A stretch of DNA of 64,000 bases from Gemmatimonadales bacterium. Lineage in GTDB: Bacteria; Gemmatimonadota; Gemmatimonadetes; Gemmatimonadales; GWC2-71-9. Where the stretch lies: assembly GCA_041615815.1 (NCBI GenBank), contig JBFJCP010000009.1, positions 32,001-96,000 on the forward strand, read 5' to 3'. Every line of letters starts with the position of its first letter. The stretch's first letter is position 1. The position numbers were made by a program. This document shows, piece after piece, positions 35,201 to 41,200 of this stretch.

Positions 35201-38200
35201 CCAACGCCACCGGCTGGCCATGGAAGTTGCCGCCCGAGATGACTTCTTCCCCGAAAACGAGTGGGTTGTCCGTGACGGCGTTCAGCTCCACGTCCACGAT
35301 GCGACGCGCGAACTCCAGGGCGTCACCCGCCGCGCCCAAGATCTGCGGCGCGCATCGCAAGCTGTACGCATCCTGGACGCGTGGATCGTTGTCGCGGTGA
35401 GACTCCCGAATCTCGCTACCCTCGAAGAGGGCTCGGAGCAAGGCGGCCGATCGCCGCTGGCCGTCGTGCGGTCGGAGATCGTGCAAGCGCTGCTCGAACG
35501 GCGCGGGCGTCCCCAACAACGCCTCGATGCTCATGGCGGCCGCACCATGCGCCGTGCGCCACAGATTCCCCGCGTCGTGCACGAGCAGGGCCAGCACTGA
35601 CGTCTGGGCCTGCGTCCCGTTGATGAAGGCGAGCCCCTCCTTGGCCTCGAGCGCGATCGGTTCGATCCCCGCCTCGGCCAATGCCTTCGCCGCGCCGGTG
35701 CGTCTCGGCGGTCGGCCCGGCATGCCCACATCGACTTCCCCCTCGCCGATGAGGGAGAGCGCCATATGCGCCAGTGGCGCCAAGTCACCGCTCGCGCCCA
35801 CGCTCCCCTGCTCCGGGACCACCGGATGCACACCTGCGTTGAGCATCGCCACGAGCTGACCCGCCAGAGCCGCACGCACGCCCGCCGTGGGTCGCAGCAA
35901 CACATTGGCGCGGAGCAACATCATGCCCCGCACCACGTCGAGTGGCAGGGGGTCCCCCACACCCGCGGCGTGGCTGAGGATGAGGTTGCGCTGAAGCTCG
36001 CAAATCTTCGCGGGTGCAATCCGTTCGCTGGCCAGACGGCCGAATCCGGTATTCACCCCGTAGACCACTGCGCCACCCTCCAAGAGACGCAGGATCGTGG
36101 CTCGTGACGCATCGGCCCGAGCGGCAGCATCGGGAGATACTTGAACCCGCGCGCCGTTGCGCGCCACCATCACGAGGTCATCCAGCGTGAGGGATTCGCC
36201 GGTCAGCGCAATCGTGAAAGGCATGGTGGGGAGAATATAGACACAGGATTGGGAGGAAGTGAGGAGGGCGAGGATCCACCGATCCCCGCCCTCGCGAATG
36301 CGACTTTGCCCGTTATTCCGGCTCGTCGAACGACGTCGCCTCGGCCCACGCTGCCACCGCGTCACCTACCGCGGAACTACGGTCACTCCACCGTCATATT
36401 GCTTGACGCCGGCTCCCACCGACAATTCGGGGTTACCCGGATCCGTCTGGTAGCTCCAATCGAAGATCACGAAATCCGCCCCCACGTGCGTGACTCGAAC
36501 GGCACCGAATCTCGCGAATCCATCGCCCCCGTCCATCTCGAAGACATAGCCAAACCCGGGGACGGCCTGTAACGGGTCGCGACTGTACCCCGTTTCCGGC
36601 GCGATGTCGATGGACGTGAGATCCTCGATGGGTGCTGCACTGGCCAAGGCCACCGACGTCCCGGCTCGTTCGGGCACGAAGAAGAAGTCCCCGGCAGCAT
36701 CGCGATCGATCCAGAAATCGATATCGGTGCGACCACCATCGGTCACGATACCGAGCTCGAGCGCCCCGACCTGCCCATCCCCATTCGCGTCCTGGAAGAA
36801 GCGGAAACCGCTCAGCGTCTGATCCGCCTGGAAGGCGTACACCAGCACGTTGCGGGCATCCGGCCGTGGCGTGTCCGCGAGAATGGGCGACCACAGACTC
36901 TCCCACCCTTCGATGCTCTCGGCCGAGATCCCGTAACAGCGGGACACGCCATTGGTGAGAGCCCCAACCAGAAACGCCGGCGCCACCGTCGTCCCTTCGA
37001 GAACCCAGGTGGCCCCGCACAGTCCGTCGTCCAGCGAGAACGAGGCACTGTACACGCGATATTGCCGGAATCCGTCTGGTGCGCTCAGGAAGGCATTGTC
37101 CGACCACGTCAAGTGCACGGCGCCATCGAGGGTAGTGCTGCTCGCGGTGGACGGCGCCTCGAGGCGTAAGCGCTCATCGACTTGTATGACGTTGCTGGGC
37201 ACGCTTTCGAACCCATCGAGGTCGACCGACACGACATAGTACTCGAGGTCGGGAATGCCCACGTCGTGGAAGGTCGTGGACGTCGTTGCACCCCGAAGAT
37301 CGAAATCGTCTCCGCTGTCCAGTCGCGAGTAGATGCGGTAGACCTGCAGAAACTCGCTGATCACTGGCTCCCACGAGAGCAGGATGCCGGCCGGTGCGGC
37401 CGGATCGCCGCTGGGATCCAGCTGGTATGCCAAGCCGAGCGGCGGATCGAGTTGCCCGGGCCCAACCACGGTCTGGGTGCACCCGACGGCGCTCAGGGCA
37501 CACATCGTCATCACCATGGCTCGTCGCATTCGTGTCCTCCTTGAAGTCCCACGCCCTCACAAGAGGCAGGCCTTGTGCCACACCTTTGAATGCGTATAAG
37601 CCATTTATCTACATAAAGTTACCACATTGAGCATTCGGAGAAAGCTGTCCTCTGTCGAGGACACAACAGCGGAACTGTCAGCGCGTCACCGATCGCTGAT
37701 CGTACTGGAACTTCACTTCCGGCTGATCGAGCAGCGTGATGAAGAAGTTGAACGCCACATTCCCGTTGGGCGCTTTGACGAATGAAAAGGTCGCGCGCCA
37801 CCGATGAAGGTCGCGGTCCAAGCGGAGCACGTGCTGTCCGAACTCTTTCGTGGTCAGATTGTACTGGGTGTTCCACGACACGGACCAATTGTGTGTAGGC
37901 GCGAAGCTCACGTTGAATCCGAGCGTGCGGGAGTCTTGGCTCGTCCCTACGATCGCACCGTCCGCCGGCGGGCGCGAGCGTCGCTCGTCGTACGAGACGG
38001 CCGTGCGAAACCCCTGTCGAGCCGGCGGGCCGCCACCCAACCCATCCAGCGTGGGGTCGAGCGAGGGACGCGGGCCGAGCGTGCTGCCCACCGGTTGCAC
38101 GAAGTCTTCGGGGCTCGGGATCCCACCCTGCCGGGGCCCGTCGTCCGGGGGCGCGTCCTTTCCCGTGATCAGCGATAGGAGTCCGGCGACCGTGCGGCCG

Positions 38201-41200
38201 GAGAGGCTGAACCGGGCGGAGACCGAGGTGAGAAAGGGATCGAAGCCCGTGGTATCGAACCCCACCGGTCCATCCCACAGGTCGTGGACCGTAGAGATGG
38301 TGAACCCCGGGAGGAGATCGCTGGTGAAGCGATTTGTGAGTGTCTGGGTCGTCCACCCGGTCCGGCCCTCCTGCTTCGCCTGCACGAAATCGAAGGCGAT
38401 GGCCGAGGTCTGGATCGTGAGCAGCTTGATCTTGCGCACTTGTTGCGTGCCGGTGGTGTCACCGGCCCTCGGCTTGAGCTTCGCCTCGAATGTCTGGAAC
38501 AACGAAGCACTCACCGTGTGGACGGCCGGACTCTCCCGGGTCGTCGCGCGCCCGGTGGGGTCGTTGGCGTTGGCGTAGGCTTCGGGGACGGTGGCGGACG
38601 GAGCCCACTGCCACGAGATCACGGGCGAGAATGCATGACGGATCCGATCGATCGGGCCGAAGCCGGGGAAGAACCCGAACACCGTTGGCGTGACACCGGC
38701 GCCGAACGACAGCCGCTTGCCTTGGCTGACGAACGCCCCGCTGCTGAATCGGTTGCGCAACAGAAACGGCCCCCCGGTGGTGTTTCGGATCCCCACCGAC
38801 GGCTGGATCTTCCAGGTCGACGAGAACAGGGTGGGCAGGTTGATTCCGGTATTCCAATCGATCTCGGTCCGAAAGTCCTCGGAAAAGAAGAACGTGGTGC
38901 TGTCGCCTGGACTGTCGGGATCGGGCAACGTCAGCTGTGAGGGCCGGGTCGTCTTGAAATCGCGGAGCGACAGGTCATTCTGCCAATTCCACCGGCCCAC
39001 CCGAATCGGCGTGCGAAAGCTGATAGCCGTGTTGCGGGTATCGGGAAAGAGGGTATCAGCCTGCTCGATCCCGCCGATGGGCGGGCGCAGAATCGGCACG
39101 CCGGGTGTCTGATCGAGCGTCTGCGAATTCGTCAACGAGAGCGAAGGTGACCACGTCACGGCCCGACTAATGGCGATGGGTCGTGGGGTGAGCGAGAGAC
39201 TTGGAAGGGTCTGACTCACGCCCCCGTTACTCAAGTCTTGGGATCGGCTTCCGCCGAGCGCGAGCGTGCCCCATGCAAACTGTTTGTTGAAGTTCAGCCG
39301 GCTGTCCAAGTTGGCCGTCTGCACCAGTGGATCCACCGTATTGCGTTGGACCACCCGCGCGCTCGTGGCAAAATCGACGTTGGCCGTGAAGCGCGTTCGC
39401 GCATCGAAGCTCTGCTGGTGGCTCCATTGGAGACGCATCGAGTTGGAGGCTGGCGCTCCGTCCACACTGCTCTCGAAGATCCGCGAAACGGAAACGCCTC
39501 CTGTCATGAACCGGTCGAGCCAGCGATACCGGAATTGGCCGTTGACCGCCTTGTAGTTCCCCGAGAACCAGTCGAAGGAGGCCTGCACATCGAAGTAGTC
39601 GCTGATGGCGAAGTAATACCCGATGTTGCTGATGGCCCGCTGGTAGCCTCGATTGGGGCGAATGAGATCGCTGATCCCGAAGCGCGGGACCAGGAACCCG
39701 CTGCGCCGTCCCTGCCGCATGTCTTGAAAGATGAATGGCAGCCACATCACTGGTACGTCCTGCACGTACAGCACGGCGGGACGCGCCACCATGATGGTAT
39801 TCGATACCCATTTCACGCGGCCTGCGGCAAAGTGGTAATGCGGCGTGGGAAGGTCACAGCTCGTGACCGAGCTGCCGCCCGCATAGATCCGCGTGGACGC
39901 GGAGTCGACACCGATCCCCCCGCGAAGAAACCACGTCACGCCCGATTGCACGAAACTCGTGAGCGCGGAGGCCACGATGCCGCGGTATTCGCAGGTGTTG
40001 TACTGCATCCCGGCGCCGACCAGCACCGTTCCCTCGTCGAAGAGGGCCGGCTCCCCACGTGCCAGCAGCCGACACTCGGCCTGGAGAAAGCTGACCGAAT
40101 CCGCCTCGAGGATACTCTGCTCGCGTTCCACCAAGGCGGAGCCACTCAGGACCACTTCCCGCGAGAGGCCGAAGAGCGTGATGCTGTCCGCCGCATAGCG
40201 GATCCCACTGTAGCCCGCGAGCTGCAAGAGCGCCTGGAGCACGGAGTCTGACGCCGGAAAGGTTCGCGAGGGCTCGGAAGGCAACCCCAGGCGTCGTGCC
40301 GCCGCGGTGTCGAGCGGTCGCGGCACGCTGTCGCCGGGCAGCTGGCCGCGAGTCACACTGTCTGGTGGCGGTGGCTGTGCCGGGTCTTGACCGAGCACGG
40401 TGCTGGGCCAAAGACCGGTGAGGGCGAGCACGACGATCGCCGCGCCGATCTTCGGTTCCTTGCGCCGTCGCCGGACGATGCGGGCGATCAGGATGCCGAC
40501 CTCGTACAGCACCACCAAGGGCAGCATCATCATGATCATCGAAATAACGTCCGGCGGGGTGATCAGTGCCGCCAACACGGACCCGATGACGAGCGCAATG
40601 GGTCGCTGCCGGGCGAACGTGTCCGGTGAAATCAAGCCCATCGCCGAGAGCAGAACGATGAAGATCGGGAGCTGGAACACGAGCCCAAACGCAATCATGA
40701 ACTGGAGTGCGAACCCCAGATACTCGTTGGCCGTGATGATCGATTCGAGATCCGCCCGCTGGAAGCGCAGCAGGAAGCGCAGGGCGGCCGGCAGCACCCA
40801 GAGGTACGCCATCAGCACACCGGAGACGAAGAGCCCGACCCCCGCGATGAGCGTGGGCACGATGTACTTGCGTTCGTGCGCGTACAGCGCCGGCGCGAGG
40901 AAGGCCCAGACCTGCGCAAAGACCACCGGCGCCGCCAGCACGAACCCGATGATCACCGCCAACTTGAGGGTGAGCAGGAACGCTTCGGTGGGCCGGGTGA
41001 TGTAGAGTTTGCCGTCCGGCAAGTACGGAAGGATGGGCTCTTTCAGCAACCCCAGCACGTCGAACTGCTGCACCACGACGAACCCGATGATCGATCCGGC
41101 CACGAGGGCGCCGAGACTCCACAGAATCCGCCACCGCAGCTCTTCCAGGTGGTCGAGGAAGGGCATCTCGCCCTTCGATTTCGTGGCGCTCATCGGGGTG

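Follow-up and report, generated by a model that had tools for sequence, protein, structure and literature searches.

A single reading frame for TatC and LptD in a Gemmatimonadales bacterium, probably a polyprotein cut at an internal signal peptide

The window, by which we mean the whole 64,000-nt stretch of Gemmatimonadales DNA that was analysed and to whose positions all coordinates refer, carries tatC and lptD as one gene. The survey's finding had placed this gene at the end of the Tol-Pal operon, and tolQ, tolA, tolB, pal and cpoB do lie upstream on the same strand:

45127-45906, minus strand: MotA/TolQ-like gene, upstream of the fused gene
44004-44705, minus strand: TonB_2/TolA-like gene, upstream of the fused gene
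within 42640-44751, minus strand: TolB gene, upstream of the fused gene
42006-42632, minus strand: OmpA/Pal gene, upstream of the fused gene
41212-42081, minus strand: cpoB/ybgF, 18 nt upstream of the fused gene and its conserved upstream neighbour
37678-41193, minus strand: fused tatC-lptD ORF, ATG start, 1171 codons plus a TGA stop at 37678-37680
27867-28109, minus strand: tatA (TatA_B_E family), about 9.5 kb downstream of the fused gene

The cpoB/ybgF gene matches NCBIfam tol_pal_ybgF with E 1.6e-24, under the curated cut-off of that family, and TPR families in Pfam; by tblastn it adjoins the gene in 57 of 70 loci. The tatA gene (PF02416, E 3.4e-20, window 27951-28097, contig 59951-60097) is the sole one found in the genome, which also holds LptE, LptF/G and LpxC genes, two Peptidase_S26 genes and 23 twin-arginine-like N-termini.

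In the ORF listing of the window, 37678-41193 is a single uninterrupted ORF of 1171 aa; the coordinates given by the survey are thus already window positions, with no 32,000 to subtract. Its N-terminal part matches Pfam TatC (aa 14-225, E 2.5e-63) and NCBIfam tatC TIGR00945 (aa 13-230; 201 bits, cut-off 132.7), and Pfam LptD_2 matches with E 2e-41 in two stretches, the best being aa 469-671. Two other studies yielded contigs that span the joint free of gaps (X5 record 10, 38690-41178; X6 record 22, 40031-40924), with no insertions or deletions listed over it. The fusion is a real single-polypeptide ORF and no artefact, as the survey had it. A family search of the 73 contigs of the genome (95.7% complete) detected one TatC place and one LptD_2 ORF, in keeping with the claim that these are its only tatC and lptD; PF04453 (LptD) had no match in the same contigs. 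Our literature searches found no paper describing a TatC-LptD fusion.

The polypeptide divides into the following parts, with the joint reading ...LYEVGILIARIV RRRRKEPK IGAAIVVLALTGLW PSTVLG/QDPAQPPPP..., where the slash marks the predicted cut:

40459-41193, minus strand: TatC part, aa 1-245, six helices to TM6 (...LYEVGILIARIV), then the first residues of the cytoplasmic basic patch
40450-40473, minus strand: basic patch R241-K248 (RRRRKEPK), cytoplasmic TatC tail and putative n-region of the internal signal peptide
40390-40449, minus strand: signal-peptide-like segment I249-G268, made up of h-region IGAAIVVLALTGLW and c-region PSTVLG (-3 Val, -1 Gly)
40387-40389, minus strand: Gln269, predicted first residue of mature LptD, following the predicted signal peptidase I cut G268/Q269
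40315-40386, minus strand: Pro-rich variable linker, aa 270-293, preceding the conserved DTAxARxLGLP motif
37681-40314, minus strand: LptD proper, aa 294-1171, with N-terminal motif, β-jellyroll (about 330-500) and large β-barrel (about 520-1168)

Known TatC proteins (A. aeolicus 4B4A, 4HTS and 4HTT; E. coli TatBC 9DZZ and 9E01) resemble the TatC part in both sequence and fold: phmmer aligned query aa 10-256 with A. aeolicus TatC 4HTT/4B4A at E 1e-46, the AF2 model has helices over 12-245 with pLDDT mostly 78-92, and Foldseek gave a TMt of 0.76-0.82 to TatC chains. Unlike these proteins, the fused TatC is extended at its C-terminus by more than 900 residues and, if cut as proposed, would be left with a seventh helix not present in known TatC proteins. 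In the LptD part, AF2 placed strands across 331-1168, and the top Foldseek matches were full-length LptD chains of LptDE complexes (8H1S, 8H1R, 9KN3, 4Q35, 5IV9; E 1e-26 to 1e-20, TMt 0.46-0.59), which share the same full-length fold of jellyroll and barrel. Identity to them is 10-13%, the family is Pfam LptD_2 and not PF04453, the fused LptD has no start codon of its own, and PF03968 does not recognise its N-terminal domain. Both folds are modelled with confidence, with a pLDDT below 50 over residues 246-293 between them, and both halves look functional.

At 8 of 15 genomes of the family, the survey understated how frequent the fusion is: of the 121 genomes sampled from this family (f1), 102 keep the joint in a single frame, and they span 78 genera at 43-80% identity. 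The ORF is complete and uninterrupted in 88 of the 102 (85 tabulated, plus G016, G090 and G064 checked singly) and is cut by contig ends in 12; in G050 a TAA falls within the LptD part, and G119 has a frameshift in the TatC part. PF00902 and PF19838 occur together in all of the best 120 database clusters, where the NCBI, JGI and ENA gene callers each called a single gene. Adjacency of tatC and lptD was seen in 70 of 70 loci examined, from nine families, which supports the proposed phylum-wide linkage; in three genomes of f1, cpoB adjoins lptD and tatC lies elsewhere.

In other Gemmatimonadota (34 loci; f2-f8 and f12) the same two proteins are encoded in the same order by separate genes, with cpoB likewise preceding them in most loci of f2 and f3 and in two of f7. 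There tatC ends in a stop and lptD has its own start, usually the GTG of a GTGA, whereas the fused gene has neither, and the basic tail of TatC appears to serve as the n-region. The split LptDs inspected mostly begin with a signal peptide ending small-x-small before Q, followed in f1 by a Pro-rich stretch.

Across 35 fused loci (30 of the fused loci in these statistics being best-scoring, non-random matches, compared with split loci picked on purpose), a basic patch always precedes an h+c segment of 16-25 residues (median 21; 20 in this genome, I249-G268). Cleavage sites were placed by our own rules and by eye, and in L011 and L044 the scripted choice between neighbouring AQ sites is ambiguous. 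So placed, position -1 is A, G or S and +1 is Q in all 35 loci, with A (16), L (11), V (3), S (3), G (1) or P (1) at -3, of which Leu and Pro are suboptimal for signal peptidase I. Inspection by eye showed the same small-x-small/Q site in most LptD N-termini examined from split loci, with A in place of Q in two f6 loci and one f5 locus. Within f1 and f3, fused and split forms have nearly equal median h+c lengths (21 versus 20) and distances from Q to GLP (36.5 versus 36 residues). By sequence, the joint is a homologue of the signal peptide that opens stand-alone LptD in split relatives, and since it has all the sequence features of a cleavable signal peptide as well, release by signal peptidase I, as the survey proposed, is the best reading, with the cut probably at G268/Q269.

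A glutamine in this position recalls the Bacteroidetes 'Q-rule', Gln directly after the signal peptidase I site, as described in PMC5837995 and PMC10653852; a term search for 'Gemmatimon' in the main text of PMC5837995 returned nothing. By crude counts Q is the commonest +1 residue in the signal-peptide set of this genome (133/591, 22.5%, versus 3.4% in composition), and in signal-peptide-like N-termini it follows A-x-A more often than any other residue (17.5% of 486 versus 3.0% background). No Glu_cyclase_2 gene was found in the genome.

Were the chain left uncut, 249-268 would be a permanent seventh transmembrane helix with LptD tethered to TatC through the Pro-rich linker, giving a covalent link between inner and outer membrane. 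QDPAQPPPP could serve as an extended spacer in such a protein, but an uncut helix has no need of the small-x-small/Q motif that all 35 fused loci keep, and Q269 stays the same in each of the 75 fused proteins aligned, within an otherwise variable linker. The hydrophobic core, whose h+c median includes a polar c-region, is moreover of signal-peptide length, unlike a typical 20-residue helix; the linker does not exceed that of stand-alone LptDs in length, and split genomes have the same Pro-rich stretch after the signal peptide. Frequent switching between fused and split forms, described below, would be hard to tolerate if a tether mattered. We consider an uncut chain very improbable.

LptD could instead be made separately by initiation just before the hydrophobic segment, with the read-through chain a minor by-product. 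The earlier statement that no in-frame Met or Val precedes this segment is inexact, as Val240 is present, encoded by GTC; Ile249 is ATC, and the sole start-capable codon near the joint is the GTG of Val255, within the hydrophobic stretch. An ATG, GTG or TTG before the basic patch does occur in 18 of the 35 fused loci, including a GTG right before RRRKKK in the same-genus genome G057, and here AAGGAA lies 6 nt ahead of the Ile249 codon. In three split loci the overlap is CTGA and lptD seems to require CTG as its start, so the phylum may make use of unusual start codons. Against this, the remaining 17 loci, this genome included, have no canonical start in that position, an SD-like motif accompanies just one of the 18 candidates, GTG is not enriched among Val codons at the joint (0.36 versus 0.54 gene-wide), and no conserved internal start was found among the 35 loci. 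Starting at Ile249 or Val255 would also yield a signal peptide without a basic n-region. Because tatC has no stop codon, ribosomes would still make the fused chain even given internal starts. We therefore give internal initiation as the main source of LptD very little credence, whereas some additional, separately initiated LptD may be made in the 18 loci with a start-capable codon.

The split loci hint at how the fusion arose. In 21 of 34 the tatC stop overlaps the lptD start (15 GTGA, 2 ATGA, 2 TTGA and 2 TGATG), so a frame change there would fuse both genes, and an ancestral 4-nt overlap of this kind explains the fusion. An LptD tree of 67 rows has eight fused/split changes, the covalent link being gained at least three times and lost four to five times. 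G149, a recent f2 fusion, keeps the whole TatC tail, followed by the signal peptide that LptD has in the split sister G145, and in the re-split G087 and G001 TatC ends right before the old h-region (...SIGT and ...TISGT, then stop).

We consider it probable that the product is a near-neutral polyprotein derived from overlapping genes and cut by signal peptidase I. The ancestor, like most other Gemmatimonadota now, would have had adjacent, translationally coupled tatC and lptD with a GTGA overlap, at which a frame change brought lptD into frame. TatC would be inserted co-translationally with its C-terminus on the cytoplasmic side; R241-K248, the hydrophobic I249-W262 and PSTVLG, taken as the former signal peptide of LptD, would then insert N-in/C-out as a seventh helix, and the LptD part of about 900 residues would be threaded through SecYEG. 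Cleavage after G268 would release normal mature LptD from Gln269, bound for the outer membrane, and leave TatC with an additional helix at its C-terminus, the old signal peptide.

A processed chain of this kind is reportedly known from the Bradyrhizobium japonicum FbcH cytochrome b/c1 precursor (Thony-Meyer and colleagues, around 1989-1991), which is said to be processed into two mature proteins at an internal signal. FbcH likewise joins a polytopic inner-membrane protein, an internal signal-peptide-like segment and an exported protein in one chain, its cleavage reportedly demonstrated where that of TatC-LptD is predicted. Both FbcH products are subunits of one complex that stay at the inner membrane, whereas TatC and LptD work in unrelated machines, the Tat translocase and the LPS transport system, and LptD is destined for the outer membrane.

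The same cleaved polyprotein might be adaptive, a variant that we regard as rather unlikely. As the tail of a polytopic SRP substrate, LptD, a large and aggregation-prone barrel precursor, would reach SecYEG co-translationally, and TatC and LptD would be synthesised at a fixed ratio of 1:1; another possibility is that TatC is tuned by the seventh helix it retains. Retention across the 102 family genomes and the repeated independent origins favour such a benefit, as does the tight co-expression that seems favoured phylum-wide, given the adjacency and stop/start overlaps. The four to five reversions within the fused clade and the three genomes that lost tatC from the locus weigh against it; AF2 does not pack 246-293 against TatC, and the re-split TatC proteins of G087 and G001, which end before the old h-region, indicate that the seventh helix is dispensable for TatC.

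Given these gains and losses, the three cpoB-lptD genomes, the equal signal-peptide and linker lengths of fused and split forms and the ancestral overlap, the functional tie between Tat export and LPS assembly that the survey had drawn from the fusion is not supported. Persistence across 78 sampled genera could equally reflect a selective benefit or a ratchet. On the near-neutral reading, the frame would be kept because lptD has lost its own start and the fused frame is the only detected route to LptD, which would explain its persistence without functional coupling of Tat and LPS. Most likely, one chain is cut back into the two usual proteins, TatC and LptD.

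The fusion of tatC and lptD is one uninterrupted open reading frame, present where the survey's finding had placed it once the positions are read as window coordinates; converting them as contig positions minus 32000 leads to 5678-9193, which holds no comparable ORF. The features of the window discussed here are as follows.

27867-28109: tatA, TatA_B_E family, one gene in the source genome
36366-37529, minus strand: conserved ORF of 387 aa
37678..41193, minus strand: fused tatC-lptD gene, 1171 codons, ATG start, TGA stop
42640-44751, minus strand: open frame containing tolB, 703 aa
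44004-44705: TolA-like ORF

Upstream of the fused gene, on the same strand, lie genes for MotA/TolQ-like and TonB_2/TolA-like proteins, tolB, an OmpA-family pal and cpoB/ybgF, so that the fused gene terminates a Tol-Pal cluster, as had been proposed. In a six-frame search of the source genome (G000; 73 contigs, 95.7% complete), TatC matched in one place and LptD_2 in one ORF, both being the fused gene. No second TatC or LptD was found in this 95.7%-complete genome with PF00902, PF19838 or PF04453, in agreement with the claim that these are its only tatC and lptD. Contigs from two other studies span the TatC/LptD joint without gaps (X5, 38690-41178; X6, 40031-40924), with no insertion or deletion listed, and together with the family-wide occurrence of the fusion they rule out an assembly or sequencing artefact.

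Two neighboring frames deserve comment. The TolB profile covers only aa 306-694 of the tolB open frame, which overlaps the TolA-like ORF; the true tolB start is probably near 43.9 kb, and open frames in this GC-rich window often carry long spurious extensions at the N-terminus. The 387-aa ORF follows lptD after 148 nt. It belongs to no family in Pfam or NCBIfam, and its N-terminus is of the lipoprotein type (MRRAMVMTMCALSAVGC/TQ). By tblastn it adjoins the gene in 44 of 70 loci, comprising all loci fetched from the family of the source genome (GWC2-71-9, here f1), others from family f3 and one from family f8. It may be an LptD-associated lipoprotein; LptE itself (PF04390) is encoded separately, at another site in the genome.

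The N-terminal half of the protein is a complete TatC. PF00902 matches aa 14-225 over all profile positions (1-208 of 208) with 214 bits against a cut-off of 25.1 (E 2.5e-63), and the NCBIfam tatC equivalog TIGR00945 reaches 201 bits (cut-off 132.7). A phmmer search of PDB sequences returned TatC at E 1e-46. The AF2 model has the six-helix TatC fold (helices within 12-245), which Foldseek superposes on 4B4A, 4HTS, 9DZZ and 9E01 with TMt 0.76-0.82 and rmsd 3.2-4.1. Residues E17, E18 and E107 do not vary among the 75 fused proteins and line up with the motifs HLxELR and LYxHE in A. aeolicus TatC; they may correspond to E15 and E103 of E. coli TatC, the N-terminal and loop glutamates for twin-arginine recognition. 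Potential substrates are encoded as well, with 23 twin-arginine-like N-termini in G000 combining [STGN]RRx[FL][LIVM] with a hydrophobic stretch; on visual inspection, about 15 of these are convincing. TatC has an established N-in/C-in topology. Given this topology in the matched structures 4B4A and 9DZZ and the basic patch R241-K248, the TatC part is predicted to end in the cytoplasm.

By profile and fold, the C-terminal part is assigned as LptD, with a predicted role in LPS insertion. PF19838 (LptD_2) matches in two stretches, the best at aa 469-671, with 142.6 bits against a cut-off of 22.5 (E 2e-41 for the protein). The NCBIfam LptD equivalogs match weakly (25 bits, cut-offs 683-944), as do LptD sequences in the PDB by phmmer (E 6.5e-4 and 1.1e-3), and no PF04453-type LptD was matched in the fused protein or the rest of G000. 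The model comprises an N-terminal β-jellyroll followed by a very large β-barrel (strands within 331-1168), and its best 15 Foldseek matches are all full-length LptD chains from LptDE complexes (E 1e-26 to 1e-17, 855-952 columns), with TatC chains ranking next. Built from a 75-row alignment, it has a mean pLDDT of 76.9 and both domains are confident; pLDDT falls below 50 at residues 1-10, 246-293 (the joint) and 1018-1058. The genome further encodes a candidate LptE partner (PF04390, E 2.3e-10), two LptF_LptG proteins and lpxC. PF03968 (LptD_N/OstA, which also covers LptA) matched nothing in G000, the fused protein included; the components of the periplasmic bridge either have diverged beyond the reach of this profile or are encoded within the unassembled 4%.

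The joint is a predicted, conserved signal peptide with n-, h- and c-regions and a small-x-small site. TM6 of TatC (...L229-Y230-E231-VGILIARIV) is followed by the basic patch RRRRKEPK (241-248), the hydrophobic segment IGAAIVVLALTGLW (249-262), PSTVLG (263-268) and Q269. Beyond Q269 comes the Pro-rich stretch QDPAQPPPPDSV... and then the conserved DTAAARRLGLP motif from D295. Cleavage between G268 and Q269 would yield a mature LptD beginning with Gln269, QDPAQPPPPDSVTR... The start of the h-region and the predicted cut site were located by script in 35 fused loci. The segment after the basic patch measures 16-25 residues (median 21) in all 35; the -1 residue is A in 28, G in six and S in one, the -3 residue is A in 16, L in 11, V in three, S in three, and G and P in one each, and the +1 residue is Q throughout. 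Across 75 of 75 aligned fused proteins Q269 is invariant, and it is the sole invariant column between E231 and D316. The joint segment shares ancestry with the signal peptides at the N-termini of LptDs encoded by separate genes. Most of the stand-alone proteins examined start with a signal peptide ending in small-x-small/Q, with A at +1 in two loci of family f6 and one of f5. Between fused and split loci of f1 and f3, the hydrophobic plus c-region segment is similar in length (median 21 vs 20), as is the distance from Q to GLP (36.5 vs 36). Two Peptidase_S26 genes occur in G000.

The site agrees with a wider preference in this genome. In G000, signal-peptide-like N-termini most often have Q directly after A-x-A (17.5% of 486, vs 3.0% background), and Q likewise leads at +1 in a crude set of signal peptides (133 of 591, 22.5%, vs 3.4% by composition); both fractions are lower bounds, since many false positives remain in the two sets. 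No gene for a Glu_cyclase_2-type glutaminyl cyclase was found in G000. A preference of this kind, the Q-rule, has been described as Bacteroidetes-specific (PMC5837995), and Gemmatimonadetes do not appear in the main text of that study. The invariant +1 Gln and the genome-wide enrichment hint that the Q-rule may extend into Gemmatimonadota.

A separate LptD made from an internal start seems unlikely. The survey's finding had stated for G000 that no Met or Val occurs in frame at the joint. That wording is slightly inexact, as Val240 (GTC) and Val255 (GTG) are present, and Ile249 is ATC; its substance holds, because the sole start-capable codon, GTG at Val255, sits inside the hydrophobic stretch and so leaves no canonical start for an LptD with a signal peptide. 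Among the 35 fused loci, 17, G000 included, lack ATG, GTG or TTG before the basic patch. The other 18 have such a codon, one of them with an SD-like motif. The GTG share of Val codons is 0.36 at the joint against 0.54 in whole genes, and thus gives no sign of selection for an internal start.

We surveyed 121 f1 genomes from 78 genera, G000 included, classifying all from the search table and re-reading doubtful ones as DNA. The joint lies in one frame in 102 of the 121. An uninterrupted match from query position ~1-10 to 1167-1171 was found in 85 (including the unpublished G068), and re-reading added G016, G090 and G064, giving 88 complete ORFs; 12 genomes have a match that spans the joint and is truncated by contig ends. 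In G119 the joint is in frame with a frameshift within TatC. The fused gene of G050 (locus L011) carries an in-frame TAA within the LptD part (locus position 2758, ~190 codons past the TatC part), for which sequencing error, a pseudogene and variation between strains are all possible explanations. The remaining 19 genomes comprise nine with adjacent split genes, three with tatC on another contig, three ambiguous at contig ends (including the unpublished G014) and four uninformative. Identity to the query across f1 is 43-80%. In the three genomes with tatC elsewhere (G012, G076 and G007; loci L074, L075 and L076), lptD stands alone directly after cpoB and encodes its own signal peptide, and the tatC on the other contig is 44-46% identical. 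A congener of G012, G086, carries a second, stand-alone tatC (L077) in addition to the fused gene.

Outside f1, 36 loci were re-read from families f2-f8 and f12, among them an f8 split locus from the unpublished G186 (L064); a further unpublished genome, G156, enters no count. Two are fused, both in f2 (G149 and G181, among 12 f2 loci re-read), and 34 are split. Open frames of more than 1200 aa had suggested fusions in f7 and further f2 genomes, and DNA re-reading revealed stops in them. In G172, G171 and G211, tatC and lptD share a frame with one TAG between them. The proposed phylum-wide linkage was borne out, tatC lying directly upstream of lptD in 70 of 70 loci examined. The best 120 protein-database clusters all carry both Pfam domains at lengths of 1033-1202 aa; where named, they come from Gemmatimonadota/Gemmatimonadales MAGs and are called 'twin-arginine translocase subunit TatC' or similar, with one 'hypothetical protein' as the exception. 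As a lead only, the ESM Atlas holds two clusters with the TatC-LptD architecture, both from Gemmatimonadota.

The split loci point to how the fusion may have arisen. In 21 of 34, the tatC stop overlaps the lptD start in another frame (15 GTGA, two ATGA, two TTGA and two TGATG), and a CTGA overlap occurs in three more (L060 of G157, L062 of G174 and L038 of G110). These three have no ATG, GTG or TTG in the lptD frame near the tatC stop, while the overlapping CTG is present. No canonical lptD start was seen in L060 and L062, both of f6, which suggests that CTG may be the start there; L038 has an upstream in-frame GTG as an alternative. From these overlaps we take tatC and lptD to be coupled in translation throughout the phylum; a change of frame where they overlap would suffice to fuse them. 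The young f2 fusion in G149 retains the whole acidic TatC tail of its split sister G145, followed directly by the LptD signal peptide. In f1 fusions the TatC tail is shortened, and the TatC basic patch therefore precedes the hydrophobic core. At the boundary of patch and core, most f1 fusions show a [T/S/K/R]-I-G motif (40441-40449; joints of L005-L029), which is also found immediately ahead of the stop codon of TatC in the re-split G087 and G001; a similar NSIGG occurs within the tail of TatC in G127 (f2). The motif seems to belong to the TatC tail.

A maximum-likelihood tree (quick method, LG+G4, midpoint root) was built from 67 LptD parts, with rows chosen rather than random; L011 (internal stop), L053 (frameshift) and L067 (short) were left out. 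On this LptD gene tree the fused/split label changes eight times, seven of them forced by starred branches. With deep all-split families beyond the midpoint root, the pattern reads as one probable gain at the base of f1 and two independent gains in f2, followed within f1 by what would be four or five reversions (G010/G085; G001; G102/G035 and G044/G110; G087). Two re-split genomes still end TatC in the f1-typical '...SIGT' or '...TISGT', consistent with secondary fission.

On the most parsimonious view, the fused gene encodes a polyprotein that would be cut into TatC and LptD. TatC would insert so that its C-terminus faces the cytoplasm, the signal peptide that once belonged to LptD would insert as a seventh helix, and the LptD part would be translocated and then cut by signal peptidase I at G268/Q269. 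The products would be an ordinary mature LptD and a TatC that retains the extra helix. The closest mechanistic precedent known to us is the cytochrome b/c1 precursor FbcH of Bradyrhizobium, reportedly processed at an internal signal peptide; the fused gene itself is most closely related to the split tatC/lptD pairs within its phylum. We found no published description in the literature on TatC-LptD fusion or Gemmatimonad TatC or LptD, as judged without full texts. By term search, 'fusion', 'fused', 'LptD' and 'OstA' are absent from a TatC survey that covers one Gemmatimonadetes genome (PMC3827258).

The survey's finding had gone further and proposed a functional tie between Tat export and LPS assembly. 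Once lptD has lost its own start the frame must be maintained, and this explains the persistence of the fusion without such coupling. Frequent switches between the fused and split states, the departure of tatC in three genomes and an unchanged linker length disfavor a required covalent or functional tie. We give only a slim chance to the fusion being more than a frozen accident, whether because an uncut chain, at least transiently, tethers the LPS insertase to the Tat receptor across the periplasm, or because the built-in seventh helix of cleaved TatC changes Tat receptor assembly while LptD becomes an obligatory co-translational SRP/Sec substrate. The AF2 model is uninformative either way on a structural role for that helix, pLDDT being below 50 over 246-293 where it would pack on TatC. 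Were either true, this would be a family in which an inner-membrane translocase is mechanistically coupled to the biogenesis of an essential machine of the outer membrane.

The fusion matters for annotation, since public names, one 'hypothetical protein' aside, refer to TatC only, so that LptD seems missing in function tables of these genomes. The family is a natural experiment of about 100 genomes in which an outer-membrane β-barrel of some 900 residues lacks its own start codon and has to be synthesized as the C-terminal extension of an inner-membrane protein with six helices. Should cleavage occur as predicted, a very large outer-membrane protein would tolerate obligatory co-translational delivery behind a polytopic membrane protein, TatC would tolerate a leftover seventh helix, and the locus would offer a clean example of overlapping, translationally coupled genes fusing, re-splitting and becoming locked in.
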